Shown: positions 4,097 to 23,557, numbered from the stretch's first letter. The stretch: DNA of 39,680 bases from Candidatus Pacearchaeota archaeon (GCA_002688335.1 NZCQ01000035.1:1-39680), one strand, 5' to 3'. The notes: generated from the sequence alone by a model not told the origin. A program made the numbers and translations.

Positions 4097-4097
4097 A

Positions 4098-4807: not shown

Positions 4808-4849
4808 TGCCCTAGACAGGATTTGAACCTGCGACACCCTGCTTAAGAG
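4808..4849 (-). tRNA. 3' half of a disrupted/split tRNA-Lys(CUU)
   Basis: The complement reads CTCTTAA GCAGG GTGTC GCAGG TTCAAAT CCTGT CTAGGGC A. These are the anticodon loop, anticodon 3' stem, variable loop, T arm with TTCAAAT loop, acceptor 3' strand and discriminator. No 5' portion is adjacent. It pairs with the fragment at 24324-24363. Confidence 0.75.
4843..4849. repeat. Left copy of the 7-bp direct repeat TTAAGAG (attL core or target-site duplication)
   Basis: Identical heptamer at 24324-24330. On the tRNA strand it is the complete anticodon loop CTCTTAA. Identity ends exactly at 7 bp. Confidence 0.8.
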
Positions 4850-4854
4850 TCAAG

Positions 4855-4870
4855 TACACATATGTGTACC
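4855..4870. repeat. Perfect 16-bp palindrome GTACACATATGTGTAC at the left element end
   Basis: Read directly. It lies 5 nt inside the 7-bp core and shares the GTACAC half-site with GGTACAC at 24303-24309. Confidence 0.8.
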
Positions 4871-4880
4871 TTTTACTAAA
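4864..4880. repeat. Left arm of the terminal inverted repeat (GTGTACCTTTTACTAAA)
   Basis: 15 of 17 positions match the complement of 24293-24309 (GTGTACCTATTAGTAAA). Both arms begin 14 nt from the 7-bp core. Confidence 0.65.
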
Positions 4881-4882
4881 TC

Positions 4883-4890
4883 TTTATAAA
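4883..4890. promoter_or_regulatory. Palindromic TATA box TTTATAAA
   Basis: It ends 21 nt upstream of the integrase ATG at 4912, consistent with a leaderless archaeal mRNA. Because it is palindromic, it could also drive transcription toward the tRNA 3' half. Confidence 0.45.
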
Positions 4891-4911
4891 CCTCCTATTT
4901 TTACTCATTTT

Positions 4912-6051: not shown

Positions 6052-6425
6052 CTTCAGAAAAAACAATAAGGATAAATGAGAAGGGATTGAAAGATATTTT
6101 TGATGATGCCATAAAAGACCATGTTATTCTCACAAAGAAATCTTTTGATATGAACAATAAATCGATAGATGAAATAAAAAATAGTATAAAAGAGCAAAAA
6201 GAAGTAATAGATACTATAGATAATAAGATTAAAGAAATAGAAAAAGATGCTGAACATAAAAACCTTAAAAAAATTATTTTTGAAGTCCTTAGCCAGATTT
6301 TTATAATAGTTTCAGCAATTTCAATTGGAGCTAATCTAACTTCTGGAGGAAGTAATGGGTTTCCAATGTGGCTGAATGTATCGCTAGTAATTATCGGAGT
6401 TGTGTTAAGGCGTATCTCAAATTAA
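6048..6425 (+). CDS. Hypothetical coiled-coil protein with C-terminal membrane segments
   Basis: 125 aa. The N-terminal part is K/E/I-rich, followed by FEVLSQIFIIVSAISIGA and WLNVSLVIIGVVL. Its start overlaps the integrase stop. Confidence 0.45.
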   Translation: MTSEKTIRINEKGLKDIFDDAIKDHVILTKKSFDMNNKSIDEIKNSIKEQKEVIDTIDNKIKEIEKDAEHKNLKKIIFEVLSQIFIIVSAISIGANLTSGGSNGFPMWLNVSLVIIGVVLRRISN

Positions 6426-6428
6426 ATA

Positions 6429-8987
6429 CTATCTCCTAGTAATTGATTCCTTTTTTCTTAAGAACCTTAATCCAATCCATCCAAAAACAACTAATCCAAT
6501 AAATAGCAGACCATAAGCAATTGTTTGCTTACTCTCTGGACCTCCAATAGCAGCTCCAGTAATATTTGGTCTAAATCTATTTATTAAATTTCTAAAAAAT
6601 TCTAATAATGGATTCCCTTGGTTTTCTTCACTTTCATTTATGATAATATCTTCTATCTCATTATCCACTACTTGTTCATCGATACTCTCATCATCAATAA
6701 CCTGGTTATCATTACCTGTACTAGCAGAACTTGTTGTAGTACTTCCCCCAGAACTTCTGCTACTACTAGAACTTCCCCCTCCACCTCCTCCGCCACCACT
6801 ACTAGGAGGAGCTGGACAAGAACCACAATCTACACCACATGAAGAACACGATTCTCCTTCGCTACATATAGAATCTCCACAAAATTCTTTTTGTTCTTTA
6901 ACAGCAGAATGCTTTAATCCAGTTATTTTATACTGCGTATTGTTATTTATTAACTCACATCCATAATCACTAGTTGTTCCAGGACAAGTTATCCAATATT
7001 CATTTTCTCCAGTACAATCTAATGTAAACTCATTAACTGATTCTATTTCTTGATCTTTAATACATAATCCAGTAACATCAGATATTTTATCAAGATAAAT
7101 AGTCTTAGTTTCATTTTGAGAATCTAAGTCTAATCCTCCTATAATTAGATAAGAATAACTACTCTCTTTAGAGTTTTGTTGTATAGAAAAATTCTCTATA
7201 TCTAAGAGCTCTCTAGTAACATCAAAATCAAATTCAATTAAAATCTTTTCATCACTTTCTACTTTATGTGATGTGAAATTCTCTGAGCTTAAATTAATAG
7301 TCGTTTCATTGTTTGATAAATGACTTAAATCACCAATAAATCCATCACAATTATTATCTGCCCCATCTCCCCTAATTTCATCGACTGGATCACCAGGAGC
7401 ACAGGTGTCTTCCTTTTCTCCAATAATGCATAAATAACTACCTTCCCTAGAACACTCACCTATTCCGCAATTAGTTGTCTCATTAAACCAAGTTTCATTA
7501 AAACCATCATCTTCTAAATCATCAATGCAATTATCATCTATAAGATTACAAGATTCAAAAGCTCCTGGATAAGTTAAGTCTCTTGAATCATCGCAGTCTG
7601 AACCTCCAACAATATCTATATCAAAATTATCTGCATCACTATCCAAATTTAAGCTCAACAAACTAACTGTTAAAGAGTCAACTTCAATATCTATAAAATA
7701 AAATCCATTAATAGCTATCTTATAATTATCGAAAGGAATTAAGGTTGTGAAGTCTATACTTTGTTCTGGGACAATATTTGATTTATCAACATAAAACCAT
7801 CTCTCAGTATTGATATTCTTCTCTAAAGATAAATTCTCAAAATCATTATTAATTGATATATCATCAAGTTGAATCTCAGAATAATCAACATCTATGATAA
7901 TAGCACCTTCTTTAGTTTGAGTTTGAGATAGACTCTCATAAAAAAATTCATTATTTCCAATCTTATCTTCAACATTTTCTCTGCTTAATTCATCTTTAAA
8001 AAACAAATTTGCAATTTGTCCTGAGGTAAAATCATCCTTAATGCTACTTGTTACAGCATGAAAATTATTTAGTAAAACCAAAGGAACATTTTCATCTAAT
8101 AGATGAGAATAAACAGTAGACACTACGCCATCGTTTGTTTCATCATGATTTGATAAACAATAACCATAAGCAGGACTTCCTCCACTTGTTTCATCAAACA
8201 ACTTATGGCCGGCAATGGTTAAGTAACTAACATCTTTATTTAACTCATTAGAATGGAACAATTCCCAAATATAATCACTGCCTATCTCAAAATCTTTGGT
8301 TGCCTCAGAATTTCCATTAAGCGATGGTACACTAAACAAATTATAGGGTTTAGCGGTACCATCAATTAGTTCCTGACAGTATGGATGATCTTCGTTAATA
8401 TTAATATTGGTTATACCGTCTACTAAATTGGCAAAATACGATCCATAAAGAGGGCTAGAAATTGTAACTATTTTGTTTATATCATCATTATATGCAAATA
8501 CATTTCCATTAGTATCAATCCCTAAATTGTGTATATAACCAATAACAGCTAATCCTCCCTGGCTGTGCGCAATAACATTAACATTATCAAATCCATTATC
8601 CCTGTATCCTTCCCCCAATATTTTACCTATAGATTCACCAACTACCCCTGCATTCTTTCTACTGCTCAGATTTGCAGGATAATAATCTAACCTCCAAACA
8701 TCATAACCTTCATTCCTTAGATAGTCTTCAATTTTCCATTCATCATCTTTTTCAGTGTTCCCATTAGCAATATTACTCCATCCATGAACTAATAAGATAG
8801 GTTGTCTTGATACATTGATAGTGTTGTTTTCAAATGTAATCGGTGTGCATGCAATACAACCTCCTCCGGTTCCCGTCCAACGTCCATGTGTTAAATCATA
8901 AGCAGGATAATCAACACCAACTTCATATGCATTAATAAAAGATATGTAGATTATCAATGTGGCAACAAGTATCGTTTTTAGTTTCAT
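6429..8987 (-). CDS. Large secreted, C-terminally anchored surface protein with an N-terminal lipase/esterase (alpha/beta hydrolase) domain and Cys-rich modules
   Basis: Signal peptide MKLKTILVATLIIYISFINA and nucleophile elbow VIAHSQGG (AxSxG, as in Bacillus LipA-type lipases). Repeated D/N/C-rich motifs follow (CDDSRDLTYPGAFESCNLIDDNC, DGADNNCDG). Then comes a G/S/T linker and a terminal TM helix plus a basic tail. Confidence 0.7.
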   Translation of the reverse strand: MKLKTILVATLIIYISFINAYEVGVDYPAYDLTHGRWTGTGGGCIACTPITFENNTINVSRQPILLVHGWSNIANGNTEKDDEWKIEDYLRNEGYDVWRLDYYPANLSSRKNAGVVGESIGKILGEGYRDNGFDNVNVIAHSQGGLAVIGYIHNLGIDTNGNVFAYNDDINKIVTISSPLYGSYFANLVDGITNININEDHPYCQELIDGTAKPYNLFSVPSLNGNSEATKDFEIGSDYIWELFHSNELNKDVSYLTIAGHKLFDETSGGSPAYGYCLSNHDETNDGVVSTVYSHLLDENVPLVLLNNFHAVTSSIKDDFTSGQIANLFFKDELSRENVEDKIGNNEFFYESLSQTQTKEGAIIIDVDYSEIQLDDISINNDFENLSLEKNINTERWFYVDKSNIVPEQSIDFTTLIPFDNYKIAINGFYFIDIEVDSLTVSLLSLNLDSDADNFDIDIVGGSDCDDSRDLTYPGAFESCNLIDDNCIDDLEDDGFNETWFNETTNCGIGECSREGSYLCIIGEKEDTCAPGDPVDEIRGDGADNNCDGFIGDLSHLSNNETTINLSSENFTSHKVESDEKILIEFDFDVTRELLDIENFSIQQNSKESSYSYLIIGGLDLDSQNETKTIYLDKISDVTGLCIKDQEIESVNEFTLDCTGENEYWITCPGTTSDYGCELINNNTQYKITGLKHSAVKEQKEFCGDSICSEGESCSSCGVDCGSCPAPPSSGGGGGGGGSSSSSRSSGGSTTTSSASTGNDNQVIDDESIDEQVVDNEIEDIIINESEENQGNPLLEFFRNLINRFRPNITGAAIGGPESKQTIAYGLLFIGLVVFGWIGLRFLRKKESITRR

Positions 8988-9054
8988 TTTAGTTTAGTCT
9001 TAACACTCTTATAGCGATGTAGCATTTATTTATAAACATTAATGTTTCCCTTTT

Positions 9055-9312
9055 ATGATATTTGAATTTGCAGAAATTAGGTGTATCTTAGAAGTTTTGA
9101 AATTGTTGAATAAGAATGAATCAAAATATTCTACGATGTTTAGGGAAACAAAAGTTAGCCACACTACTCTGCAACCAGTTTTAAAAGAATTGAATGAAAA
9201 GGATTTCATAAACAAACACGATGTAGGTCACATGAAAGTAGATTATGAAATAACTGATAGAGGAAATAAGCTCTTAAAACTCCTTACCGAATTAAAACAG
9301 CTAGTGAACTAA
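9055..9312 (+). CDS. Small winged-helix DNA-binding protein
   Basis: 85 aa. YSTMFRETKVSHTTLQPVLKELNEKDFINKH has an HTH-like pattern. Confidence 0.45.
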   Translation: MIFEFAEIRCILEVLKLLNKNESKYSTMFRETKVSHTTLQPVLKELNEKDFINKHDVGHMKVDYEITDRGNKLLKLLTELKQLVN

Positions 9313-9324
9313 AGAGCTTTTTAG

Positions 9325-9798
9325 TTATTTTGATAAGGGTCTAAATATATATAGGTAACACAATATAGCAAAGAAAACTGTTACAGCTATGTAGCTCCAA
9401 AATAACTCAATTTTTCCCATTATCTCCAATTCATTGATTAAGGTAAACATAGAGGTTAGAAAAATAACAGATGTTAAGTAGATTATTACGGTATTAAAAA
9501 TAGCACTTAATTTTTCTTTTTCATTATGTAATGCTACATCAAATCCTTTTTGAGTCAATTCTATGCTCCACTCACCATACCTTTTATCCTTATTCGTAGG
9601 TTCGATAATCTTTATCATCTCTTGTTTCTCCAAGAAATGTAATGGAGAAAAAACATCAAACTGAGTAAGACCTATTTCTTCTGCTATTTTTCTCTCAAAT
9701 TCATCTATGTCTTTTATGAACCCATATACCATGTTCGGGTTGTTATAAAGATATTTCAATAATCTTTTCCAAACATACTTATGTTTCTTTTCTTTCAT
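9325..9798 (-). CDS. Hypothetical protein, wHTH-like N-domain plus two C-terminal TM helices
   Basis: IAEEIGLTQFDVFSPLHFLEKQEMIKII is followed by VIIYLTSVIFLTSMFTLI and IAVTVFFAILCYLYIF. Confidence 0.45.
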   Translation of the reverse strand: MKEKKHKYVWKRLLKYLYNNPNMVYGFIKDIDEFERKIAEEIGLTQFDVFSPLHFLEKQEMIKIIEPTNKDKRYGEWSIELTQKGFDVALHNEKEKLSAIFNTVIIYLTSVIFLTSMFTLINELEIMGKIELFWSYIAVTVFFAILCYLYIFRPLSK

Positions 9799-9829
9799 TA
9801 AAATTAGTAGATTTTGTAGTTAAAAAATA

Positions 9830-10471
9830 TTAGTAAAAAGGGGTTACGGTTTCCTCTCCCCCAATATCTTTTGATTCATATTTTATTTTGCAGATTCTTT
9901 CCTCAGGGATAGATTCATAAATAAAGGAAACCATATATTCTGTAGTTCTATCAATTTCAGGAATACTAATAACAAACTCATCTTGTTTAAGCTCAGATAT
10001 ACTAACTCCATTTTCAGGACAGGCCATCATAAAAAAACCATCGAGAAAATCCTCCACAGACTCCCTATCTTGATTATGGCAATCAATGTTTAAATTTAGG
10101 TCATAAGTTTTTTTACCCTCATTTCTAATATAAATCCTAAGAAAATCATATCTATCTTCTTGTTTATCTAGTTTTAATCTCCACAATAGACTTGATGAAC
10201 AGGCATCTAGCTGATAGAATCCACTCAAAAATTCATAACTCATATCTTCTTCAGAATGTATTGAAAACATTATTTGAGGTTTATCTGGGATTAAAAGTGA
10301 AATATCCTTCTTTATGTCATTTATATCCTTAGATAAATTTTGATATTGATCATTAGTGTCTTTATCCATTTGATAGTCATGATATAATCCCCACCCCCCA
10401 ATAATTGTTCCTACTCCCGCTACTAGTAGCGTTAACAATGATATCACTATAATCCATTTATTTTCCATCAA
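9830..10471 (-). CDS. Hypothetical membrane-anchored protein
   Basis: 213 aa with an N-terminal TM helix (WIIVISLLTLLVAGVGTIIGGWGL). No family recognised. Confidence 0.45.
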   Translation of the reverse strand: MMENKWIIVISLLTLLVAGVGTIIGGWGLYHDYQMDKDTNDQYQNLSKDINDIKKDISLLIPDKPQIMFSIHSEEDMSYEFLSGFYQLDACSSSLLWRLKLDKQEDRYDFLRIYIRNEGKKTYDLNLNIDCHNQDRESVEDFLDGFFMMACPENGVSISELKQDEFVISIPEIDRTTEYMVSFIYESIPEERICKIKYESKDIGGEETVTPFY

Positions 10472-10549
10472 TATTATCTGTTTCGTGGAATTTTATATCT
10501 TTCTATACTCCTAAAATAATCTTATATACTTCAAATCTTTCTTTTTAAC

Positions 10550-11464
10550 ATGAAACAAATAATTGAAAAAGAAATTGAAAGAATCTTTAGCAAGAATAGT
10601 ATAGCTAAGGTAAAATCTATAAAAAAATTTGACATTGGATTTAATAATGACATTTATTCAATTAATGATAAATTCATTATAAAAATATGTAAAAATAGAT
10701 CAAAAGAGAATGATTTTAAAAAAGAAATTATTTACTATAAACTATTTAGAAACGAAATTCCAGTTCCTAAGATATTATTTGTGGATATATCTAAAAAAAT
10801 AATAAATAGATGTTATTTTGTTTACAAAAAGATAGAGGGAGAAAACCTCTATGCCAAATGGCACTTACTTAAAGGTTCTCAAAGAAAACAAATAGTAAAA
10901 CAAATTTGTGGGATATTGAAGATAATCAATAATTCCAATAAGAAAGGCCAAATAGATTGGCATAAGAAAAGATATTCTAAGATTAGAAAACTTCTTACTA
11001 AAATCACAAATAAAAACATCTTATCAAGTAAACTTATCCAAAAAACAAAAGATTTTGTAGAAAAAAATCATCATATATTAAAAGAGCAAAAACTAGGGTT
11101 AGTATATTGGGATTTGCATTTTGATAACATTCTCATTAAAAATTCAAAGGTGGTGGGATTCTTAGATTTTGAGGGTATTGATATTAGATCAATTGATAAC
11201 GTCTTAGATGCCATAAGAAGAATGCAAAATTATCCTAAAGTATATGCTTCAAAAGAATCTGAAAAATTTGTTAAGAGAAAAGACTACTCAAGTCTATTGA
11301 AATGGTTCGAGGAATTTTATCCAGAACTATTTGATTTTGACAAAATTAATAATAGATTAGATTGGTACTCAATAGAATATGATTTATCATTATTGCTCAG
11401 ATATCCTGACAATTTGGAGCTGAAGAAAAGATTGGCAAAAACTGTAAAATGGAAGATAATCTAA
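10550..11464 (+). CDS. APH/choline-kinase-fold phosphotransferase
   Basis: N-lobe IGFNNDIYSINDKFIIKICK (Lys), catalytic loop YWDLHFDNILI (D-x4-N, as in HGDLxxxN) and metal-binding GFLDFEG. Confidence 0.7.
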   Translation: MKQIIEKEIERIFSKNSIAKVKSIKKFDIGFNNDIYSINDKFIIKICKNRSKENDFKKEIIYYKLFRNEIPVPKILFVDISKKIINRCYFVYKKIEGENLYAKWHLLKGSQRKQIVKQICGILKIINNSNKKGQIDWHKKRYSKIRKLLTKITNKNILSSKLIQKTKDFVEKNHHILKEQKLGLVYWDLHFDNILIKNSKVVGFLDFEGIDIRSIDNVLDAIRRMQNYPKVYASKESEKFVKRKDYSSLLKWFEEFYPELFDFDKINNRLDWYSIEYDLSLLLRYPDNLELKKRLAKTVKWKII

Positions 11465-11937
11465 AGAAGTTGAAGTTAAAAGTTAGTATTGCAAAATTTT
11501 TAACATTTCATAAAAATAGAGTATCTCTTTTGAAAGAATTGTTGCAAAAGAAGGTTCATGGAAGACTTATATTCCAAGTTTCATTTCTTGGTTTCGAGAG
11601 TTTGGGAAAGGTATTATATCCAAAAGAAGAAAATTCCAAAAAAAGATTTCTTGATGCCTTGAAGGTTATTAATGTGGATGATGCTATTATTTTACATAAA
11701 TATTGGAGAAATCCTTTAACTCATGAAGGATTTGTATCGGGTATCTGGACATCATTAGAAACCTGGGGTGATGACGATCTCTCATTTGCATCATTTATTG
11801 ACGATTCTGATACTAATAAGATAAGAGGCGGTGTAGAATATCCCCCAGGTTCGATCCTTGCAATGTATGAGGGATTAATTAGATGTTCAGAAAATTACTT
11901 CAAGGAAAGGGAAATCAAGGAAGTTGTCATAGAATAA
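11449..11937 (+). CDS. Hypothetical protein with HEPN-like RNxxxH motif
   Basis: 162 aa. KYWRNPLTHEG matches the Rx4-6H HEPN signature, with the frequent Asn after Arg. It overlaps the kinase gene by 16 nt. The motif-only call is weak. Confidence 0.4.
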   Translation: MEDNLKKLKLKVSIAKFLTFHKNRVSLLKELLQKKVHGRLIFQVSFLGFESLGKVLYPKEENSKKRFLDALKVINVDDAIILHKYWRNPLTHEGFVSGIWTSLETWGDDDLSFASFIDDSDTNKIRGGVEYPPGSILAMYEGLIRCSENYFKEREIKEVVIE

Positions 11938-12028
11938 AACCTTTGGTAAAGGCTAACTATTGACAATTCAATTTGTAGGAAATTATTTAAAAAGAAATTA
12001 ATTTAAAATTTTAAGGTAATAATACAAA

Positions 12029-12703
12029 ATGGTAGGAAGATTATTTCTAAGCGGTGGAGGAGATGAAAAACAAACTTATAAAATTGATGAAGAATTTTTA
12101 AGGGGGGTTGAGAAAATTCTTTACATTCCAATTGCATGGAAGGATGGAGATTACGAAAGTTGTAAACGATGGTTTAGTAATGCAATGGGAATGCATAAAA
12201 AAGTTCATATTACGACACTAACAGAACTTTCCAATGCGCCAAGTCTTGAAGATTACGATGCAGTGTATGTTGGAGGGGGAAATACTTTTAAACTTCTTGA
12301 TGAAATGAAAAGATTTAATTTTGATGATAAATTACATAAATACTTTCTAAATGGAGGAACAGTTTATGGAGGTTCTGCTGGAGCAATAATCTGGGGTAAT
12401 GATATTAATATTGCATTGTATTGCGAAGATGCTGATGAAAATAAAGTTAATTTAAAGGATACAAAGGGTATAAACGTAGTCAGTAATTGTGATGTCCAAT
12501 GTCATTTCTTTGATAATCAAGAAAAAGAGCATTTAGATTATGTTGATGAAAATAATAGGAATGTTGTAGCACTACCAGAAGAATCTGCTTTATTAATATC
12601 AAAGGACGGGTCTAAGGTAATTGGTGATAAACCGGTAACTTTATTTACAAGGGGAAAGATTAAAAAATTTGAAGTTGGAGAAAATTTCAATATGAGTTAT
12701 TAG
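12029..12703 (+). CDS. Peptidase S51 family (dipeptidase E-like)
   Basis: VYVGGGNTFKLLDEM and the nucleophile motif YGGSAGAII. Confidence 0.7.
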   Translation: MVGRLFLSGGGDEKQTYKIDEEFLRGVEKILYIPIAWKDGDYESCKRWFSNAMGMHKKVHITTLTELSNAPSLEDYDAVYVGGGNTFKLLDEMKRFNFDDKLHKYFLNGGTVYGGSAGAIIWGNDINIALYCEDADENKVNLKDTKGINVVSNCDVQCHFFDNQEKEHLDYVDENNRNVVALPEESALLISKDGSKVIGDKPVTLFTRGKIKKFEVGENFNMSY

Positions 12704-12733
12704 ATTTTTATACATCTATAACCATCAATATAT

Positions 12734-13480
12734 ATGAAAAAGAAAATAGCAGTTATTGGTAAGGGAAAGTTTGGATCTCAAATCGCCACAATATTAAAAG
12801 ATAAATATGGATCAGAATATTTATTTCCAACAAGAAAAGATAAGAATAAGACTGATAAAGATAAAACAGATTTCCCAAATATATCCATTAATAATATTAA
12901 GGCTGTAGAAAATTCAGATATAATTCTCTTACTTACGCATCCAAAAGATGCCAGTGAAGTCTTACAAGAGATAGATTCAGTTATTAATAATAGATTGATA
13001 GTTAATTTTACATCAAAGGAGTTAGATTCACAACATCCCTTATTAAATGTTGCTTGTTCGCCAGTAATTGAAGGAAGAATTACTACGATTTTGTATAATC
13101 CAAATGAAAAAGTCAAGAAAAAAGACATAGAAATGTTTGCAGAAATATTTAAGCCATTAGCAAAAAATTTCATGGAGTGTGATAATTCAGTTGCTGAACT
13201 AGGTCTTATGTCAAGAATCCGTGCTCATATTTTCAATTATTATAGAGACTTATTAAAAGAAGGTCATAATGGAAGTAATCTTAAATCTCACTTTGACCAT
13301 GCTATTGAAAGCCTACTAAATTCTGAAGGTATTGAGAACCAAACACAAAAAGCTCAGACCAAGGGAGGATTTACTGAGGAGATAAATAATCTATATAATG
13401 AAGACAATTTATTTGAAAAATTGGTTAAAAAAGAAAAAGATGTCATAAATAGTAAAATAAAATCTATTCAGGAAAATTAA
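12734..13480 (+). CDS. NAD(P)-binding oxidoreductase, pyrroline-5-carboxylate-reductase-like
   Basis: N-terminal Rossmann stretch KKIAVIGKGKFGSQIA. The C-terminal TKGGFTEE resembles the ProC SPGGTT motif. Function uncertain. Confidence 0.5.
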   Translation: MKKKIAVIGKGKFGSQIATILKDKYGSEYLFPTRKDKNKTDKDKTDFPNISINNIKAVENSDIILLLTHPKDASEVLQEIDSVINNRLIVNFTSKELDSQHPLLNVACSPVIEGRITTILYNPNEKVKKKDIEMFAEIFKPLAKNFMECDNSVAELGLMSRIRAHIFNYYRDLLKEGHNGSNLKSHFDHAIESLLNSEGIENQTQKAQTKGGFTEEINNLYNEDNLFEKLVKKEKDVINSKIKSIQEN

Positions 13481-14616
13481 CTATCATACCTATTAGACTT
13501 ATCATATCCAATAACTAAAAGGTTTTTTCCTTCAACATTTTTAGCTATATCTAATGCGACATTGATTCCTGCTTTTGTGGTTCTACCAAATCCATCTGCA
13601 GATTCAATAGGAGAATCCCAGTGTACTAATTTCTTAGTATCATCTCTACCAGTTAGGTCACTATACTGTGCATCCATCCTCTCACTGCTAACAAGAGCAA
13701 CATCATCAACCAATTCTAATGAATTTGTTATATGGGGAAAGTCAATTCCTTGAAAGCTAGTTCCAGGTAATTCATGTCTAGATAAACTTCCGGGTTTAAT
13801 TCCAAATCTTCTCTCATACTCTCCAGGATGTTTTAAATCATATAGAACAGCAGCTTGAACAGTCTCAAAAGGAACAATTCTCGTTCTTGTATCATCTATT
13901 GATTGAACTTCCTTTCCTAAATCAAATCCTCGTAAATTATAGGGAGCTCCTTCTTCCATAAAAGTTCCAAGAATGCCTTGAGCCATATTATTCCAATACT
14001 GAAATACTCTACCAGGCCCTAAAACACTAGATCCGTTTCCAATTGCTGGAATAAAGTAATGAATATTATCTAATTCCTCAAATGCCTCACTTGCTATGCC
14101 TTCTAAAGCTCTTAATGTGAGTTCATTATTGGTCCCCCTTTCTTCACCCATTGAGTGGTTCATAAAATGATACTCTCCCTTATTTTTAACCAAAAATCTT
14201 CTTAGAAATCTTGGAAATCCATTTACATAATCTTCCGCAGGAGTAAAAATTAAATGGTCTTCATCAGGTAATTGTTCTAATATAGCTCTTTCCCTTGCTT
14301 TCTCTCCACCTGCAGGTAGAACCATATAACAATCATATCCTAGTTCCTTACCAATTCCTGCAAAAGAAACTCCTGCAGAACCAGAACTTGTTTCTAACAC
14401 CTTATCTCCTGGTTTAATCCTACCTCTTTGCTCATCATGCTTAAATATCTCAAGATATACCCTATCGTAATGACTTTGAAAAGGATTGTCAAATTCCCTT
14501 TTTATCCATATAGAATTACCATTAGGAACTTGTCCTTCGTATCTAACTAATGGAGTTCCACCTATTTTTTCTTCCCATTCTCTATAAAGTGTTCCTCTAT
14601 CTTCTTGCATTTTCAA
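13477..14616 (-). CDS. Fold-type II PLP-enzyme homologue (cysteine synthase / Trp-synthase-beta superfamily) lacking the expected Schiff-base lysine
   Basis: IGGTPLVRY, ETSSGSAGVSFAG (compare TSGNTG) and IPAIGNGSSVLG (compare GxGTGGT). The NPxxSxKxR motif reads NPFQSHYDR here. Confidence 0.65.
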   Translation of the reverse strand: MKMQEDRGTLYREWEEKIGGTPLVRYEGQVPNGNSIWIKREFDNPFQSHYDRVYLEIFKHDEQRGRIKPGDKVLETSSGSAGVSFAGIGKELGYDCYMVLPAGGEKARERAILEQLPDEDHLIFTPAEDYVNGFPRFLRRFLVKNKGEYHFMNHSMGEERGTNNELTLRALEGIASEAFEELDNIHYFIPAIGNGSSVLGPGRVFQYWNNMAQGILGTFMEEGAPYNLRGFDLGKEVQSIDDTRTRIVPFETVQAAVLYDLKHPGEYERRFGIKPGSLSRHELPGTSFQGIDFPHITNSLELVDDVALVSSERMDAQYSDLTGRDDTKKLVHWDSPIESADGFGRTTKAGINVALDIAKNVEGKNLLVIGYDKSNRYDS

Positions 14617-14820
14617 TTTTCTCAGAATTAATCTGAGGTATTATCACCTCTATAATATATGTTAAAATACACATTTTTAAGCCTTTCGCATTATAGTCTA
14701 TTTTCCGAAATAAACTGCTGAATCTTATGTGTAAACTTACGAAAGAAATTTCGGATTTTGGTAAAATAGATGGCATTTTAATAGATAAATTAATTTAAAT
14801 CATCCTTATGTTAGGATATC

Positions 14821-15600
14821 ATGGACTTTGAACCAATTAATTTAGATGGATTTGATGGTAGAGATGAAGCATTGGCAAAAATTAAAAGATATATCCATCA
14901 TATAACGCCTATAATGTTCTATAGAACAAATGATTTGATTCATTCAAAAAGGGTCCTCTGGCACCTTGAACAAGCCATACCGGACATTTTACAAGTATAC
15001 GGGACGGACTTTGATGTCAAATATTCTAGGACATTAGCACTAGTTCATGATGATGTTGAAATACTTACTGGAGATGTTCAATTGCATGATAAAGAACATA
15101 TGGGATCTGGGGAGCTTGAAGCCTTGGCCGCAGAAGAAAATAATGCTATACCAAAATTAGTGTCGATGTATAATGGAATAGCAAATGGATACGATTATGC
15201 TGAGTTACTAGCTACTGCTAAAGAAAAGGATAGATTAGAATCACAATTTGTTTCATTTTTTGATAAATTTGACGGAGGAGGTGAAGCATGGCATGAAGTA
15301 TGGGCAGGAAATCATTGTTTTCTACTTCCTGCTGGAGGAAATCACGGAAAAGAAGGAGGGTATGTAAGGAGATTAAATGAATTTCCAACTAAATATCCTG
15401 CTATGTCAAGATTCTTTGATCAATTTCCAGAATATTTACCACAGCCGTTTGATTTTAAATCAGTAGCAGATAGAAGCAAACCTCATACAGAAATTTCATT
15501 GCAAGAAGATAGTGGGTATTCTCCATATGAAAGATGGAGAATACCAATTATGAAACATGAAGGTGCTGATATCCTTACAACACAGATAGAATTTAGCTAG
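14821..15600 (+). CDS. HD-domain phosphohydrolase (YfbR-type 5'-nucleotidase-like)
   Basis: H...HD...D pattern: IHSKRVLWHLE ... LALVHDDVEILTGDV. Confidence 0.6.
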   Translation: MDFEPINLDGFDGRDEALAKIKRYIHHITPIMFYRTNDLIHSKRVLWHLEQAIPDILQVYGTDFDVKYSRTLALVHDDVEILTGDVQLHDKEHMGSGELEALAAEENNAIPKLVSMYNGIANGYDYAELLATAKEKDRLESQFVSFFDKFDGGGEAWHEVWAGNHCFLLPAGGNHGKEGGYVRRLNEFPTKYPAMSRFFDQFPEYLPQPFDFKSVADRSKPHTEISLQEDSGYSPYERWRIPIMKHEGADILTTQIEFS

Positions 15601-15647
15601 AAATTCTAAATAGAAAACAATATTAATGCTAATTTTGATTATATTCT

Positions 15648-16613
15648 ATGAAAGAAGTAATAATAATTCATGGAACAGAAGGCAGTCCAAAATCAAACTG
15701 GTTTCCATGGTTAAAAAAAGAATTGGAGAATTTTGATTGTGATATATTTATTCCAAAATTTCCAACTCCAGAAAATCAATCTTTAAATAAGTGGCTAGAA
15801 GAATTTGACAAGATTAAAACTAATATAAAAGAGGACACTATTTTAATTGGGCATAGTTTGGGCCCTGCATTTATTCTCTCGGTTCTTGAACAAATTGATA
15901 AACCTATAAAAGCGGCATTTCTTGTTGCAGGATTTACAGGCAACCTCGGGAATGAACATTTTGATTCTTTGAATGACACATTTGTTAATAAAAAATTTGA
16001 TTGGAATAAAATAAAAGGAAATTGCAAAAAATTTTATGTGATTAACTCAACTAATGATCCATATGTACCAATAGAAAAAGGGGAAGAATTAGCCAATAAT
16101 TTAGATGTTGATTTAGTTCAACTAGATAATGCAGGACATATTAATGCCGAATCTGGTTACAATACGTTTGAGTTTCTTCTTGACAAAATTAAAAAAGAAT
16201 TGTATAGAGAAACTGAAAGTTCAGGAGGAGTTGTTCTCAATAAAGAGGGCAAGGTCCTAGTTGTAAGTCAACATGGAACTTCTTGGTCACTACCAAAAGG
16301 TCATATTGAAAAAGGAGAAAATCAAATAGAGTCAGCAAAAAGAGAAACCTATGAGGAGTCTGGAATAACTGAATTAGAACATATATCTTATCTTGGAAAC
16401 TATCAAAGATATAGATTAAACAAAAAAGGCGGAATTGATGAAACAGAAAGAAAAACAATTCATATTCATTCATTTAAGACCAATCAAGATATACTCAAAC
16501 CAGTTGATCCAGAAAACCCAGAAGCAAAATGGGTAGATAAAGAAGAAGTATCAAATCTACTAACGCATGAAGCAGATAGGGAATTTTTTAAAAAAATTAT
16601 CAATACTATCTAA
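15648..16613 (+). CDS. Fusion protein: YdeN/RBBP9-type serine hydrolase domain plus Nudix hydrolase domain
   Basis: N-terminal half: VIIIHGTEGSPKSNWFPWL and GHSLGP. C-terminal half: Nudix box LPKGHIEKGENQIESAKRETYEESGI (GX5EX7REXXEEXG). Confidence 0.7.
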   Translation: MKEVIIIHGTEGSPKSNWFPWLKKELENFDCDIFIPKFPTPENQSLNKWLEEFDKIKTNIKEDTILIGHSLGPAFILSVLEQIDKPIKAAFLVAGFTGNLGNEHFDSLNDTFVNKKFDWNKIKGNCKKFYVINSTNDPYVPIEKGEELANNLDVDLVQLDNAGHINAESGYNTFEFLLDKIKKELYRETESSGGVVLNKEGKVLVVSQHGTSWSLPKGHIEKGENQIESAKRETYEESGITELEHISYLGNYQRYRLNKKGGIDETERKTIHIHSFKTNQDILKPVDPENPEAKWVDKEEVSNLLTHEADREFFKKIINTI

Positions 16614-16647
16614 AAGTAATCTTGAAAACACTAAAACAACAATAAAA

Positions 16648-17553
16648 ATGAAACCAGAAAAGCTAAAAATAGGAGATGCTATTGGAATTGTATCACCTTC
16701 AAATCCAGTTGAAGGAGAAAGCATAAACTTACTAGAGAAAGGAATTAATTACCTAGAAAATTTGGGTTTTAAAATTAAAAGAGGAGAATTTCTTTCATCA
16801 ACAAATCCTGAAGATAAAGCTAAGGATATCAATAACTTCTTCTCAGACAATGAGGTAAAGGCTATAATCTGTACTCAGGGAGGGGATAGTGCTGAAAAAA
16901 CTATTCCATTTATTGACTGGGAGATTATAAAAAAGAATCCTAAGATATTTATGGGGATAAGTGATATAACAGTTCTTCTAAATTCAATTAATCATAAAAC
17001 CGATTTAATCACGTTTCATGGAAATGATATATGCTATGGGTTTGGTAGAAATCCAAATAATTATGACCTAGAGGAGTTTAAGAAAATTTTAGTTAATGGA
17101 AAATCAGGAGAGATAAATTCTAATGGAGAAAGAAAGACGATAAGGTCTGGTGTAACTACTGGTAAACTTTCTGGAGGAAATATAAGGTGTCTATTAAAAT
17201 TAGCTGATACAGAATATTGGCCAGATTTTGATAATTCTATACTAATATTGGAAGCTTATAAGATTGATGAAGAAAAATGTTTGGAATATTTTCAGATTTT
17301 AAAAGATAAAAAAGTATTTGATAAAATTAATGGTGTAATCATTGGATTCATATATGAAATGCAAAAAGAAAATCCAAATGAAAAACAAATGGAAGATTTA
17401 CTATTGGAATTTACCAAGGAATATGATTTTCCAATTCTTAAGATTAATGATTTTGGGCACAACTGTCCAAATACAACACTTCCAATTGGAGGCAAAGTAG
17501 AAATGGATGCTGATGAAAAGACAATAACAATAATAGAAGGATACATAAAATAA
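16648..17553 (+). CDS. LD-carboxypeptidase / MccF-like peptidase S66
   Basis: IGIVSPS, nucleophile motif FMGISDITVLL, and DFGHNCPNTTLPIGG near the C-terminus. The track start at 16567 overlaps the previous gene, so I prefer the ATG at 16648 (MKPEKLKIGD). Confidence 0.75.
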   Translation: MKPEKLKIGDAIGIVSPSNPVEGESINLLEKGINYLENLGFKIKRGEFLSSTNPEDKAKDINNFFSDNEVKAIICTQGGDSAEKTIPFIDWEIIKKNPKIFMGISDITVLLNSINHKTDLITFHGNDICYGFGRNPNNYDLEEFKKILVNGKSGEINSNGERKTIRSGVTTGKLSGGNIRCLLKLADTEYWPDFDNSILILEAYKIDEEKCLEYFQILKDKKVFDKINGVIIGFIYEMQKENPNEKQMEDLLLEFTKEYDFPILKINDFGHNCPNTTLPIGGKVEMDADEKTITIIEGYIK

Positions 17554-18075
17554 TCAGTCTTCCCACTCCAACTCCACTAAATCCTGTGGACTAACATGAC
17601 AATAAATTTCTGTCGTTTGCAATTTTGCATGACCTAAAAATCTCTGTACCTGCCTCACATCCCATCTCTTTTTATTCAACAACCATGTGGCTCCAGAATG
17701 CCTTAATGTATGAAAATGTAAATCCTTGTTTAAAACTTCTTTTGCTTTATTCTTAAATGCAATCTCCAGTGCCCTTTCACCACAATTGATAGGCAATTTA
17801 TTCAAAGCATGTAGCACTCCAGACTGATTAATCTGCAAGGGTTTAATAATCGGAATATGTCTATCTTTCTTTCCCTTTGCTTGCTTAATCATTATCAAAT
17901 GTTGTTTCTTATCAACATTCTCTAATTTCAAATTAACAACTTCGCTTACCCTCATAGCCTGATAAAATCCAAGAAGAAAGGCCAGCTTATGATTATTTCT
18001 TTTTGTTTTAGAAATAATTTTTACTAACTCGTCCTCAGTTATTGTTTCTGGAATTCTTCTCCCTTTCATCTCCAA
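17554..18075 (-). CDS. Minimal tyrosine recombinase (catalytic domain only, 173 aa)
   Basis: FYQAMRVSEV (Arg), HFHTLRHSGATWLL (H-x-x-R), FLGHAK (His) and TTEIYCHV (Tyr). Confidence 0.8.
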   Translation of the reverse strand: MEMKGRRIPETITEDELVKIISKTKRNNHKLAFLLGFYQAMRVSEVVNLKLENVDKKQHLIMIKQAKGKKDRHIPIIKPLQINQSGVLHALNKLPINCGERALEIAFKNKAKEVLNKDLHFHTLRHSGATWLLNKKRWDVRQVQRFLGHAKLQTTEIYCHVSPQDLVELEWED

Positions 18076-18485
18076 AATCCCTCCCTTTTCTGTCTTCTTC
18101 CAATTATTTGTCTGGGATAGATTCTTTTTTGAGGGCTTAAGATTTTGGAAGTCACAACTTTCTCCTTAGGCAACTCTTTATCAAAATCTATGTCGCAATT
18201 ATCTGTGCCTGTATGAAATGTTCTGGAACTAGAACCAAAAATATCAGAAAAATGTTGCAAGTCCTCAGAATTCTTTCTATGTTGAGGATTGTTCAAATTT
18301 AAGTTTGTGTCAAATTCACATGCAACCGCCTTCGGAGATTTATCCTTTCCAAAACAAGCTAAGTCCAGTTTAGAGAGAACAGAAAAATCTTTTGAAGGTA
18401 TAATAAATTCAGATTTGCATCTATATCCCTTTTCTTCCAATTTTCTTTTATTCAACTTCTGACAATCTGAATGTTTCTTATCCAT
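18066..18485 (-). CDS. Hypothetical protein
   Basis: 139-aa ORF overlapping the recombinase start by 10 nt. No family recognised. Confidence 0.4.
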   Translation of the reverse strand: MDKKHSDCQKLNKRKLEEKGYRCKSEFIIPSKDFSVLSKLDLACFGKDKSPKAVACEFDTNLNLNNPQHRKNSEDLQHFSDIFGSSSRTFHTGTDNCDIDFDKELPKEKVVTSKILSPQKRIYPRQIIGRRQKREGFWR

Positions 18486-18659
18486 TTATTCAAACCTCCT
18501 TTTTTCCCCAGTTCTCCGATTGATTCCAAACTTATACAAAACTTTATCATTAGTTTTATCCCTTCTCTCAAATATATCCCACTCATCTTTCTTTTTAATC
18601 TTAAAGATTATGAATATTATGATAGCAATAACAATTCCAATAATTATCTCTTTTTCCAT
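18486..18659 (-). CDS. Small membrane protein (57 aa)
   Basis: MEKEIIIGIVIAIIIFIIFKIKKK... Not in the track. Its stop abuts the next ATG (TAAATG). Confidence 0.3.
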   Translation of the reverse strand: MEKEIIIGIVIAIIIFIIFKIKKKDEWDIFERRDKTNDKVLYKFGINRRTGEKRRFE

Positions 18660-19045
18660 GTTTTAACATATCTGTCCTCAAATTCTATTGTTTTAGTTTT
18701 TTCAACAGGAACTTTCTTTACTACTTCTCTTACCTCAACTTCTTTTTTTATTCCTTTCTTTTTAGGAAGATTCTTTATACCCTTATTACTCAACTGATAC
18801 CATCTATTATCTAACATCCTTCTGGGACCTATTGACTTACTATTCACAAAGCGGGATACTCTCAATAAATACAACCAATTCCATGCAGTTTTTCTATCAA
18901 CTTTAAGAACTTGCTGCATCTCAGACAGAGTAAACTTTCTTTTTCCAAATTTCTTTCTTATAGTATTAACAGCTATTCTATTAGCGCTAAGATTCCTTTC
19001 CTGCCATTGGCTTAGATTTTCAACCCATACTTGTTTTTTGGCCAT
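18644..19045 (-). CDS. Putative winged-helix DNA-binding protein
   Basis: FTLSEMQQVLKVDRKTAWNWLYLLRVSRFV is HTH-like. The C-terminal tail is basic. Confidence 0.45.
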   Translation of the reverse strand: MAKKQVWVENLSQWQERNLSANRIAVNTIRKKFGKRKFTLSEMQQVLKVDRKTAWNWLYLLRVSRFVNSKSIGPRRMLDNRWYQLSNKGIKNLPKKKGIKKEVEVREVVKKVPVEKTKTIEFEDRYVKTWKKR

Positions 19046-19067
19046 TTTCTAGACTAGTACAGAATAG

Positions 19068-19802
19068 CTATATGATTTCATCAGAATCCAGCTTATCTGT
19101 TTCAATATTATCTCCAAACAATTCTTGCTCAGATTCGAATAACTTATCAATATCTGAATAATCTTTCTCAATATTATCTGATTTATCTATGGATTTTTGA
19201 CTTTCTGCCTTCGGAACTAATTGCATTGATGATTTGGTTATCTTTCCTCCAGTCAACACAAGCAAAATTCTATCAAAAGAACCAGCTCTTGATACAATTT
19301 CTTTATGAAACTCTTGATAAAATTTTTTCTTGTTACAATATCCAGCAGAACCATTTTTAGATTTCTTCCAACAATTTAATAATGTGGGGAGTATTATCAT
19401 ATTTAACACACTCAATAAATTTTGAGAGACATTTGATAAAGTAAAGGGATTAATTCTTTCCAAAGGACCAGAAAATAGGCCATCTATTTTAATTCTTAAA
19501 TAAGTAAGATAGTTATAAATATCATTTTCTAAATCATTAATAAGTGCATTATCAGAAACATGACTTTTTGTAAAAGATAAAAATTCAGATAATATTATTT
19601 CTAGTAATCCAATAAGTTCATTGATAGGAGAAATTAGGGTATCTAATCTCTTGTAACCTTTTCTATAATTATTAAACTTTAGTTCATAAAGTTGATATGT
19701 CTTTTTGAATTTATATAATAGCTCAGCTACATCTTTAGCATCATCAGGAGCTTCATGCTTTACATTTATTATATCTAAATTATCAGGCAATTGTTCATAC
19801 AT
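19068..19802 (-). CDS. Hypothetical protein
   Basis: 244-aa ORF with an acidic C-terminus. No family recognised. Confidence 0.45.
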   Translation of the reverse strand: MYEQLPDNLDIINVKHEAPDDAKDVAELLYKFKKTYQLYELKFNNYRKGYKRLDTLISPINELIGLLEIILSEFLSFTKSHVSDNALINDLENDIYNYLTYLRIKIDGLFSGPLERINPFTLSNVSQNLLSVLNMIILPTLLNCWKKSKNGSAGYCNKKKFYQEFHKEIVSRAGSFDRILLVLTGGKITKSSMQLVPKAESQKSIDKSDNIEKDYSDIDKLFESEQELFGDNIETDKLDSDEII

Positions 19803-19803
19803 T

Positions 19804-20049
19804 TTACTCTCCTTTATTTATTTGCAATATCTTTTTTCTTGCACAGGGTTTACAAAGATAATCAATGAAACAACCATGAGCTGCATTTGAAAACTGAACA
19901 AACTCGCATTTACATTTGCTTGTATTTCCCTGGATTGTACAGCCTAGACAGATTTCATTTCTTGGTTTAAACAATCTTTTTACAACTACGTTGCTATTGT
20001 AATCCCAATCAGGAATTCCCATTTCTTCCTTTAATTGATTCATTTTCAC
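19804..20049 (-). CDS. Small Cys-rich (zinc-binding-like) protein
   Basis: 81 aa with CLGC...CKCE...C...CKPC. Confidence 0.4.
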   Translation of the reverse strand: MKMNQLKEEMGIPDWDYNSNVVVKRLFKPRNEICLGCTIQGNTSKCKCEFVQFSNAAHGCFIDYLCKPCARKKILQINKGE

Positions 20050-20201
20050 TTCTTCCTTTCTTCAAATTTTTTCCTGCATTTTTTAATAGACTCTTTTTTT
20101 GATCTTTTGTTCTTCATCTCTTTTCTTATGCAAGCATTGAACTCTTTCTGATTCATTGTTCTTTCCTCCAAATTTAATTTCTAATCTGTTGCTTCATTTA
20201 C

Positions 20202-20369
20202 TTAAGCAATATAAGGCATCACCTTCATTCTGTTAGGAATTACAACAAGTTGATTAACAGCCTCTACGCATTGCTGATGTCCCTTTATTTCAAGGTATGT
20301 TCCAATAACTGCTGCATTGCATGTCCAATCATCCTTTTGCTCTTTTCCGCAAATATCACATTTTTCCAT
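20202..20369 (-). CDS. Small zinc-ribbon-like ORF (55 aa)
   Basis: MEKCDICGKEQKDDWTCNAAVIGTYLEIKGHQQCVEAVN... Not in the track. Confidence 0.3.
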   Translation of the reverse strand: MEKCDICGKEQKDDWTCNAAVIGTYLEIKGHQQCVEAVNQLVVIPNRMKVMPYIA

Positions 20370-20418
20370 TTTTTAGTCTCCCTTAATTTAATTTGAAAAT
20401 AAAGGTCCAAGGGAACCT

Positions 20419-20748
20419 TTATTTTGTTGCAACATTATACTGTTGCTTACCATTAACCATTGTTTTAACAATGGTAAGTGTCTTATCTTTCAAAGGACCC
20501 TGAATTTTCAAAGCTCTTAAAAGAGTCCAAGCACTTGTCATGATAACTTTTTCTTCACCATTCTCTTTGGCATGAAATAAATAATAAACGCCTTCACTAC
20601 CAGTTAGCTCTACTGGCTCATCACCAATAAATGTAACTTCTACAGGTTTGTCAATCTCAAATTCTACTTTTGGTTTTCGCTCTATTTCAGTTGTTGGTAG
20701 TTTGTCCCATGCGCCAAGTTGTGGTGTTGTGGTTTGTGTCTGTTCCAT
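20419..20748 (-). CDS. Hypothetical protein (position compatible with a DNA-binding accessory replication protein)
   Basis: 109-aa ORF immediately downstream of the NTPase gene. No motif recognised. Confidence 0.45.
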   Translation of the reverse strand: MEQTQTTTPQLGAWDKLPTTEIERKPKVEFEIDKPVEVTFIGDEPVELTGSEGVYYLFHAKENGEEKVIMTSAWTLLRALKIQGPLKDKTLTIVKTMVNGKQQYNVATK

Positions 20749-20766
20749 TTTTATACCTCCTATAAT

Positions 20767-22575: not shown

Positions 22576-22830
22576 AATGACTTATCCATGTTCTCAAGAT
22601 AGATTCCTCCATTTCAGTTCTTTGTCCGATAGGTTTATCCAAAAACTCCCTTATCTTCTTTCTTCTAAATGCTGCTGCATCTCTATGCAATTGCTCATTA
22701 AATGAAATCAATAATAATTTCATCACCCCTGTTTCCCCTATATTTATTTTTCTTACAACAATCTAAGTAGGGAGCTAATCTACATATCTCTAAATAGAAT
22801 TCTGATTCAATTTCATTGACAGATTGCAAA

Positions 22831-23154: not shown

Positions 23155-23156
23155 TT

Positions 23157-23430: not shown

Positions 23431-23432
23431 AC

Positions 23433-23550: not shown

Positions 23551-23557
23551 AACCAAT

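Follow-up and report, generated by a model that had tools for sequence, protein, structure and literature searches.

A 19.5-kb plasmid-like element integrated into the anticodon loop of an archaeal tRNA-Lys(CUU) gene and its putative replacement tRNA

The window analyzed here, namely the whole 39,680-nt stretch of DNA from a Candidatus Pacearchaeota archaeon (GCA_002688335.1, NZCQ01000035.1:1-39680), has a G+C content of about 31%, encodes two CDC48-type ATPases and raises a specific question: why do the two halves of a tRNA-Lys(CUU) gene lie 19.5 kb apart, each of them ending in the complete anticodon loop? Both loops are copies of the heptamer TTAAGAG, which can be read directly from the sequence in the context ...CCCTGC TTAAGAG TCAAGT... 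on the left and ...CTCTAGA TTAAGAG GCAGGT... on the right (Table 1). The bases outside the two copies are unlike on either side (C and A before, T and G after), so that the identity comprises exactly 7 bp, as had been noticed in an earlier sequence-only reading of the locus. Since the heptamer alone is common, with 13 occurrences in the window on both strands together, its significance rests on the context, in which each copy represents the anticodon loop of a tRNA half.

The structural correspondence of the two halves is conspicuous. With the loop included, the 5' half (24324-24363, minus strand) reads GCCTTAG TA GCTC AGTCCGGTTA GAGC A CCTGC CUCUUAA and the 3' half (4809-4849, minus strand) CUCUUAA GCAGG GTGTC GCAGG TTCAAAT CCTGT CTAGGGC. 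They pair with each other in the acceptor stem (GCCTTAG/CTAGGGC) and in the anticodon stem (CCTGC/GCAGG), and joining them via a single loop results in a cloverleaf that is identical at 73 of 74 positions to the intact tRNA of the related contig L023. The 7-bp core is exactly the anticodon loop at both junctions, where it is flanked by the stem strands CCTGC/GCAGG; this agrees with the proposal of the sequence-only reading that the symmetric anticodon stem provides the arms of the attB site. Neither junction contains a tRNA according to ARAGORN and Rfam, and the sequence that adjoins the 5' half (TCTAGAGTCCTACGG...) is not tRNA-like. The TATA-like motif GTTTAAAA precedes the intact tRNA of L021-L024 by the same distance as the 5' half in the window, and its retention upstream of the 5' half suggests that the host promoter is probably still in place. 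We also considered an assembly artefact, which is ruled out by an independent ENA contig from a Tara Oceans marine metagenome (L001, sample ERR594346) that carries the integrase and shows the same left junction, as well as by sister insertions from other samples.

The history of the split gene could be retraced from empty sites in relatives. A search with a 41-nt pattern across the reconstructed junction retrieved four JGI metagenome contigs, each of which harbors an intact tRNA-Lys(CUU) at the site and no second tRNA-Lys. Contig L023 shows synteny with both flanks of the insert in the window (112-3798 on the left, including the gene of a HhH-GPD glycosylase; 24324-24450 and 27192-27324 on the right), and L022 is syntenic with positions 27195-39370 including both CDC48 genes, and the 19.5 kb are present in neither of them. 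This documents that the 19.5 kb represent an insertion into a formerly intact gene. An empty site in a relative had been named beforehand as a check on integration, and L023 provides it in the form of an intact tRNA between the same neighbors. The sole intact tRNA that ARAGORN and Rfam detect in the window is another tRNA-Lys(CUU), which lies inside the insert at a distance of 73 bp from the right core copy and the 5' half. Given that the empty-site contigs have a single tRNA-Lys at the site, this tRNA arrived together with the insert. Its stems (anticodon CGTGG/CCACG, acceptor GCTCCCG/CGGGGGC) are unlike those of the split gene, hence it is a separate gene and not the partner of either half. 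A canonical integration, in which the 3' half would be a displaced repeat of the intact tRNA and the 5' half the remnant of another event, was rejected, because the 3' half has a similarity of only 84% to the intact tRNA over 49 nt and stems that match the 5' half rather than the intact gene, and because the empty sites carry the joined gene.

Table 1. Location of the split host gene, the attachment cores and the main components of the inserted element in the window.
Feature	Position	Strand	Remarks
Host tRNA-Lys(CUU), displaced 3' part	4809..4842	-	GCAGG 3' strand of anticodon stem, variable loop, T arm, CTAGGGC 3' strand of acceptor; BLAST to tRNA-Lys genes
Left 7-bp core TTAAGAG, attL overlap	4843..4849		Anticodon loop CUCUUAA on the minus strand
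Left arm of element (P')	4850..4911		Palindrome GTACACATATGTGTAC (4854-4869); inverted-repeat arm 4864-4880; TATA-like TTTATAAA (4883-4890)
Tyrosine recombinase (integrase), 379 aa	4912..6051	+	PF00589
Cargo	6052..24173		Enzymes, HTH regulators, second integrase, 602-aa P-loop protein
Second integrase	17554-18485		Two overlapping ORFs, in cargo
602-aa protein	20767-22575		Walker A motif GDQGSGKS, in cargo
Complete element-borne tRNA-Lys(CUU)	24174..24250	-	ARAGORN; Rfam RF00005, 66.3 bits; followed by oligo-T run
Right arm of element (P)	24251..24323		Inverted-repeat arm 24293-24309; TATA-like TTAAATA (24277-24283, minus strand)
Right 7-bp core TTAAGAG, attR overlap	24324..24330		Read directly
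Host tRNA-Lys(CUU), displaced 5' part	24331..24363	-	GCCTTAG acceptor, D arm, CCTGC 5' strand of anticodon stem
TATA-like box TTTTAAA, candidate host promoter	24388..24394	-	25-31 nt upstream of host 5' half

Positions 4850-24323 accordingly represent a 19.5-kb integrative, plasmid-like element in a DPANN archaeon. Its cargo comprises genes for an APH-like kinase, an S51 peptidase, a F420/NADP oxidoreductase-like protein, a PLP enzyme, a HD hydrolase, a serine hydrolase-NUDIX fusion, a LD-carboxypeptidase and several HTH regulators. The cargo varies between elements, and the Walker A motif is the sole pointer to any replication module; the 602-aa protein that contains it has no detectable kinship to the large proteins of the relatives L025 or L008, the latter of which is circular and encodes a primase-polymerase-like protein. 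Our PHROG scan of eight unannotated element proteins returned no match of known function, and no relative was found among the IMG/VR viral contigs scanned with the integrase alignment. The element looks plasmid-like, without recognizable viral genes among the proteins scanned, but viral genes of archaea often escape recognition. The TATA-like boxes of the two arms, TTTATAAA located 21 nt ahead of the integrase ATG and TTAAATA located 28-34 nt upstream of the element tRNA, are candidate promoters, and each of them remains with its own gene after integration. The sequence GAGTATTTAA of the right arm is found at the same place in L008.

The integrase matches PF00589 with 38.3 bits (cut-off 27.1) and has 27 homologues with 32-68% identity. 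An alignment of 20 sequences showed that R191, K225, R290, W315 and Y325 are invariant and that H287 is conserved in at least 90%, which corresponds to the catalytic pattern R...K...HxxR...H/W...Y of tyrosine recombinases. The genomic context of nine homologues was examined and complemented with further loci from a genome scan. In the window 62 bp separate the left core from the integrase ATG, and the distance between core and integrase start amounts to 60-67 bp in ten loci (the window and nine relatives); the annotated starts in L005 and L029 are located farther away (154 and 108 bp). The relatives in species-representative genomes stem from Candidatus Woesearchaeota MAGs and one Sedimentisphaerales bacterium, with a distant one in Akkermansia. 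A tblastn search with the integrase retrieved no relative from plasmids and, from 50,697 phage records, only a 26% match over half of the protein, namely to the integrase of a Geoglobus pleolipovirus; no sequence match to any solved structure was obtained.

Two relatives exist as free circles. Contig L009 crosses the end and the start of L008 at 100% identity, documenting a circle of about 16.5 kb, and the 127-nt terminal repeat of L014 is indicative of a circle of 15.46 kb. Each circle has one core only, which is located 61-63 bp upstream of its integrase. The order in L008 is tRNA-Lys(CUU), 71 bp, CTTTA-TTAAGAG-TAAAG, 63 bp and the integrase ATG, which is precisely the order that is obtained by circularizing the insert of the window, and the arm to the right of its core is nearly identical to positions 4850-4911. 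A circular junction, the second check that had been proposed in advance, is hence present in the related elements L008/L009 and L014. The circle L014 retains only the 3' remnant of a tRNA beside its attP, which shows that a whole tRNA is not universal in this family.

Integration at the same site has occurred repeatedly. Four other contig groups exhibit a left junction directly after the loop heptamer, at the same position of a tRNA-Lys gene: L005/L006 and L025 in tRNA-Lys(CUU), and L016 and L027/L028 in tRNA-Lys(UUU), where the heptamer at the junction is TTAAAAG. The closest integrase (68% identity) belongs to L025, whose host tRNA-Lys(CUU) lies beside a HhH-GPD gene. Among these four groups the right junction is also present in L005 only. 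In this Woesearchaeota MAG (L005/L006, with L005 in GCA_964366925.1) an element of about 5.7 kb cuts the host tRNA-Lys(CUU) at the loop, the halves fit to each other across the element (stem CCACA/TGTGG and acceptor strands), and an intact tRNA-Lys(CUU) is located about 93 bp from the right end of the element. [quoted passage not shown]

The contiguous order tRNA-core-integrase was also found in three bacterial contig types (L002/L003, L004, L012/L013), where it resides inside long chromosomal contigs (10 kb examined on each side), whose G+C content is about 43-54% in the left flank as compared with about 35% at the integrase. The contigs concerned include Ga0416708_000023 (273 kb), JANQGW010000102.1 and Ga0395806_0002809. 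This attP-like order in bacterial chromosomal contigs is unexplained by a simple integration model; it could have originated from tandem or nested elements, or from recombination through the element's own tRNA gene.

In all five attP-like element types that contain a whole tRNA the heptamer on the integrase side is the same as the anticodon loop of that tRNA, i.e., TTAAGAG is associated with CUU (L004, L008, L012) and TTAAAAG with UUU (L002, L029). A core-matched anticodon in five of five types is what compensation for the broken host gene predicts, and a general helper role does not require such a match. We infer a design of the type "disrupt and replace", in which the tRNA of the element makes up for the gene that is broken by its integration. 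The only intact tRNA-Lys(CUU) within the window is the element's own, and the host genome may hold another copy elsewhere. The replacement could moreover be dispensable, since AAG codons might be read by a tRNA-Lys(UUU) as well. The sequence-only reading had recognized that the element supplies no 3' tRNA portion and that the target gene is not regenerated, which is in accordance with the lack of a tRNA at the junctions, but it had missed the compensation by the element-borne tRNA-Lys(CUU).

The arms on both sides of the core harbor an inverted repeat. Reading inward, positions 4864-4880 are GTGTACCTTTTACTAAA, the reverse complement of 24293-24309 is GTGTACCTATTAGTAAA, and 15 of the 17 nucleotides are identical. 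The repeat is located at an offset of 14 inside each core copy, and shuffling of the two 60-70-nt arms yielded a 17-mer of the same quality, at any offset, in one of 1000 cases; both ends of the element moreover start with TC.AG. The earlier description of 14-bp spacers followed by a 15/17 inverted repeat was hence correct. Its interpretation as an attP feature holds with one modification, because the repeat is real yet not a separate device: it is part of a longer attP with dyad symmetry that is found across the family. This was established by comparing the two arms outward from the core over their first 35 positions and testing their symmetry against shuffled sequences, in which about 8.5-10.5 positions were symmetric across the loci (standard deviation about 2.6). 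The window has 21 symmetric positions of 35 (shuffles 9.9 +/- 2.6) and L008 and L014 have 23 each (p < 0.0005 in all three cases), followed by L012 with 19 (p = 0.001), L004 with 17 (p = 0.005), L029 with 15 (p = 0.0135) and L002 with 14 (p = 0.053); the symmetry is weak in the sister element L005 (13 of 35, p = 0.0635). The best 17-mer inverted match is found at equal offsets on both sides in six of seven sites. We conclude that the 15/17 repeat is the best-conserved section of an imperfect palindrome, about 67 bp long, which is centered on the core and recurs across the family; this palindrome presumably constitutes the binding architecture of the integrase. The best-conserved part of the palindrome in the window lies 15-31 bp from the core, whereas classical core-type sites are located closer in. 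A comparison of attB and attP by eye revealed a weak similarity in the 10 bp beside the core (about 6 of 10 on one side).

The most plausible explanation of the locus, which we regard as very probable, is that positions 4850-24323 were inserted by their own tyrosine recombinase within the anticodon loop of the host's gene for tRNA-Lys(CUU) and brought along their own replacement tRNA. Integration by a tyrosine recombinase was also the favored version of the sequence-only reading, and it is corroborated by the empty sites of L023 and L022, the circles L008/L009 and L014 and the conserved integrase beside the core. According to this scenario the protomers of the integrase would bind the palindrome of about 67 bp around the core of the circular form, in which the tRNA is expected immediately beside attP, at a distance of about 73 bp from the core, and the integrase about 62 bp from the core on the other side. 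The enzyme would then insert the element by conservative site-specific recombination, with the cut bonds presumably at the host anticodon loop. attP and attB would have only the 7-bp overlap TTAAGAG in common, and the anticodon stem of the host would supply the short inverted arms of attB. As the element lacks the 3' part of a tRNA, the insertion splits the host gene into halves 19.5 kb apart, with the full loop in each of them. The complete tRNA-Lys(CUU) of the element, once expressed, would replace the broken gene, and excision is predicted to restore it.

Three other explanations have to be weighed against integration with a replacement tRNA. The one that is nearest to it accepts the integration as described and assigns the element tRNA a different main role, namely that of a landing pad, of a counter-measure against defences that cleave tRNA-Lys or of a helper in codon usage. 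A landing pad would receive further copies of the element, and the right-end junction on the L005 scaffold is what a second copy inserted into the element's tRNA would leave. Nucleases that cleave the anticodon of tRNA-Lys are known, and the same idea has been raised for actinophages (PMC10865867). The circle L014 moreover manages without a whole tRNA. The match of the anticodon with the core, and hence with the target, in five of five whole-tRNA attP-like types speaks against these roles as the main ones, and we consider this explanation unlikely. The roles of landing pad, defence and helper are compatible with compensation. A transposon-like insertion, with the 7-bp repeat as a target-site duplication and the inverted repeats as subterminal binding sites of a transposase, would explain the combination of a short direct repeat with inverted repeats near both ends and the shared TC.AG start of the ends. 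It is nevertheless scarcely credible: no transposase was found in the element, and the free circles already hold the heptamer once between the arms, so that it is carried by the element rather than copied from the target. The independent insertions are all located at one position of tRNA-Lys, and the heptamer that is carried varies with the anticodon, which is indicative of site-specific recombination and not of a duplication.

The third explanation starts from split tRNA genes, which are known from Nanoarchaeum equitans and some Desulfurococcales and whose halves lie apart with mutually complementary flanks. The trailer of the 5' half and the leader of the 3' half would pair via the inverted repeat, and an endonuclease and a ligase would yield a tRNA-Lys with the CCTGC/GCAGG stem. 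Both halves are undecayed (73 of 74 positions identical to the intact orthologue), the promoter-like box that precedes the 5' half in the host is intact, and a co-fold of the 5' half plus 60 nt of trailer with 60 nt of leader plus the 3' half assembles the halves into a cloverleaf. Trailer and leader can also form a duplex that contains the 15/17 repeat and has an energy of -18.9 kcal/mol. The details of this structure argue against splicing. In the co-fold a 10-nt loop faces a 3-nt UAA bulge of the 3' strand beside a 6-bp AGAGUC/GACUCU helix, which is exactly the fold that had been drawn by hand in the sequence-only reading. It lacks two 3-nt bulges spaced by a 4-bp helix, and no pairing results when a second bulge is forced. 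The long helix starts 14 nt from the exon ends, and the energy of the co-fold (z = -1.9 relative to shuffled trailers and leaders) was equaled by 9 of 200 shuffles. The whole loop is present in both halves, unlike in the tRNA halves of Nanoarchaeum, where it is not kept in both, and the duplex of the sister L005 reaches only -7.6 kcal/mol. The dyad symmetry of attP accounts for the complementarity, and the same symmetry is found in the free circles, which offer no halves to be spliced. With an intact tRNA of the same anticodon 73 bp away there is furthermore no need for splicing. The second interpretation of the sequence-only reading, a Nanoarchaeum-like guide for trans-splicing, is therefore not supported in view of the missing bulge-helix-bulge, the intact isoacceptor and the weak pairing in L005, and we regard it as highly improbable.

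A more speculative link to split genes concerns the future of the disrupted gene rather than its present state. Since the palindrome of attP is centered on the loop, each insertion leaves behind a promoter-bearing 5' half with one arm and the complementary arm with the 3' half. The resulting trailer-leader duplex (-18.9 kcal/mol in the window) resembles the kind that appears to hold the tRNA halves of Nanoarchaeum together, and after decay of the element or scattering of the halves few changes adjacent to the exons might suffice for a spliceable junction. Insertions of this type could thus have been the raw material of the split tRNA genes of DPANN archaea; this idea, whose strongest form holds that a trans-joined tRNA is already made at a low level, appears doubtful to us, with a rather small chance of being right. 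The element is in any case a direct and datable example of a mobile element that has broken a tRNA gene of an archaeon at its anticodon loop, and it bears on the debate over the origin of split and intron-containing tRNA genes. Compared with the established split genes, the locus shares the 5' and 3' halves at separate places of an archaeal genome and their complementary flanks; it differs in the lack of a bulge-helix-bulge, in the complete loop in both halves, in the presence of an intact isoacceptor and in the evidently intact, probably excisable element between the halves. The agent, a mobile element with a recombinase, agrees with the model of tRNA gene disruption by Sugahara et al. 2012 (PMC3293823).

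The integrases of the SSV and pNOB8 types are likewise archaeal tyrosine recombinases that target tRNA genes (PMC8371274), and the sequence similarity of their characterized members to the integrase of the window is at most marginal. Its gene remains intact after integration, as it does in the pNOB8 type; in contrast to the "suicidal" SSV type, attP is located outside of the integrase gene, whose intact ORF starts 62 bp from the core. Both types restore the tRNA, which is not the case here. Integration as a rule restores an uninterrupted tRNA copy, as stated in a review from 2021 on archaeal tyrosine recombinases (PMC8371274). The class of att sites in anticodon loops, in which loop and stem represent a natural analogue of a lambda-like 7-bp overlap with symmetric arms, is treated in the same review (PMC8371274) in a summary that cites Williams 2002 and Campbell 2003. 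The crossover region of the element likewise corresponds to the 7-nt loop, with the stem providing the dyad symmetry of attB, whereas a classical attP includes the portion of the tRNA that extends from the loop to the 3' end and thereby rebuilds the gene; here only the loop is common to both sites.

The closest parallel is the tRNA-dependent lysogeny of actinobacteriophages (Guerrero-Bustamante & Hatfull, mBio 2024, PMC10865867), which has been described for Fionnbharth, LeBron, Cain, Gaia, BrutonGaster and OneUp. The common core of these phages comprises 8-17 bp, the host tRNA, mostly a tRNA-Lys, is not reconstituted, and a phage tRNA with the same isotype is needed for the lysogen to survive (PMC10865867). 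Among the papers listed for the term tRNA-dependent lysogeny, none had a title or abstract opening that dealt with archaea, and as far as the searched literature goes the present element is the first archaeal example of disruption and replacement, which had previously been described for some bacteriophages only. The strategy is thereby extended beyond actinobacteriophages, both to archaea and to an element of plasmid-like nature, and the unrelated integrase on an archaeal plasmid-like element suggests an independent origin. In hosts with one gene per tRNA, for instance DPANN archaea with small genomes, the cell would depend on the tRNA of the element as long as it is integrated, and this dependence may stabilize the element. 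The compact cassette with a 7-bp core that tracks the anticodon (CUU or UUU) moreover offers a natural system to study the minimal homology of tyrosine integrases. Judged from its sequence, the element shares three features with the phages, namely a tyrosine integrase that apparently recombines attP with an attB overlapping a host tRNA gene, a core that is too short to rebuild the tRNA (7 bp here), and an own tRNA-Lys(CUU) inside the insert that is missing from the empty sites; the necessity of the tRNA has been demonstrated for the phages, whereas for the archaeal element it is inferred. The two systems differ in their unrelated integrases, in their hosts, which are DPANN archaea (Ca. Woesearchaeota) rather than Actinobacteria, and in the viral hallmarks, none of which was seen in the element. 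The core of the archaeal element is exactly the anticodon loop, and its tRNA, attP and integrase are united in a single compact cassette.

The 3' acceptor end of tRNA-Lys recurs in short additional copies (e.g., ATGGACGCGAGGGG, ATGGCTCTGCAGG, ATGGCCCGTAAGG) just downstream of the tRNA-Lys 3' half (minus strand) in related insertions in tRNA-Lys(CUU) and tRNA-Lys(UUU) and in the sister insertion of a Woesearchaeota MAG. These copies resemble scars that previous canonical integrations left at the 3' end of this gene, thereby suggesting that in these archaea the tRNA-Lys locus adjoining the HhH-GPD glycosylase gene is a hot spot for integration. In the window, a HicA/HicB toxin-antitoxin pair lies between the HhH-GPD gene and the host tRNA 3' half; this stretch has no BLAST counterpart in the empty-site contig (L023), whose equivalent interval is about 230 bp shorter.

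Features at tRNA-Lys loci, in the element and in its relatives
Feature	Location	Strand	Context
HicA/HicB toxin-antitoxin pair	window 3872-4307		between HhH-GPD gene and host tRNA 3' half; annotation of the identical contig L001
Extra tRNA-Lys acceptor-end copies	L025:1187-1345; L016:2383-2395; L005:7345-7360		
Second tyrosine recombinase	window 17554-18485	minus	inside the element; two overlapping ORFs
Core with tRNA 3' remnant	L014:9470-9582		circular relative
Repeated core and tRNA 5' halves	L005:12979-13310		sister insertion
Interrupted apparent tRNA	L020:9760-9915		another Woesearchaeota MAG
tRNA-core-integrase loci	L002:9779-10003; L004:9794-10003; L012:9815-10003; L029:1742-2006		bacterial-looking contigs

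The second tyrosine recombinase of the element is probably frameshifted, its two ORFs comprising one of 173 aa (PF00589, E = 1.4e-25) and one of 139 aa upstream. The circular relative L008 also has a second, short integrase-family gene as well as a resolvase. In another circular relative, L014 (15.46 kb, 127-nt terminal repeat), the core TTAAGAG is located 61 bp upstream of the integrase. A whole tRNA gene is absent beside this core, which is accompanied only by a 3' remnant consisting of the T arm, the acceptor strand and the 3' strand of the anticodon stem.

In the sister insertion L005, the element tRNA is followed by a 93-bp spacer, TTAAGAG and a 5' half of this element tRNA together with the flank upstream of it; beyond an N run come the spacer's final 45 bp, TTAAGAG and the host 5' half. 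This layout is as expected of a collapsed assembly if a second element copy had entered the tRNA of the first one, which suggests that the carried tRNA may be an attachment site in its own right; a scaffolding artefact could likewise be the source of the arrangement. Next to a distant integrase (30% identity), L020 contains an apparent tRNA, possibly Tyr(GUA), whose anticodon loop is interrupted by some 90 nt. ARAGORN made no call for it; it may represent an intron-containing tRNA serving as attachment site.

Four loci resembling an unrecombined attP are present in bacterial-looking contigs of up to 273 kb, one of them from a Sedimentisphaerales MAG; in each, a spacer of 41-78 bp separates a whole tRNA-Lys from the matching 7-mer core, and the integrase follows contiguously. 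The left flank has a G+C content of about 43-54%, which falls to about 35% at the integrase, and L004 and L012 harbor a second integrase gene just past the 3' end of the tRNA. This contiguous order is unexplained by a simple insertion model. The occurrence of such attP-like loci in these contigs places the integrase family in both archaea and bacteria.
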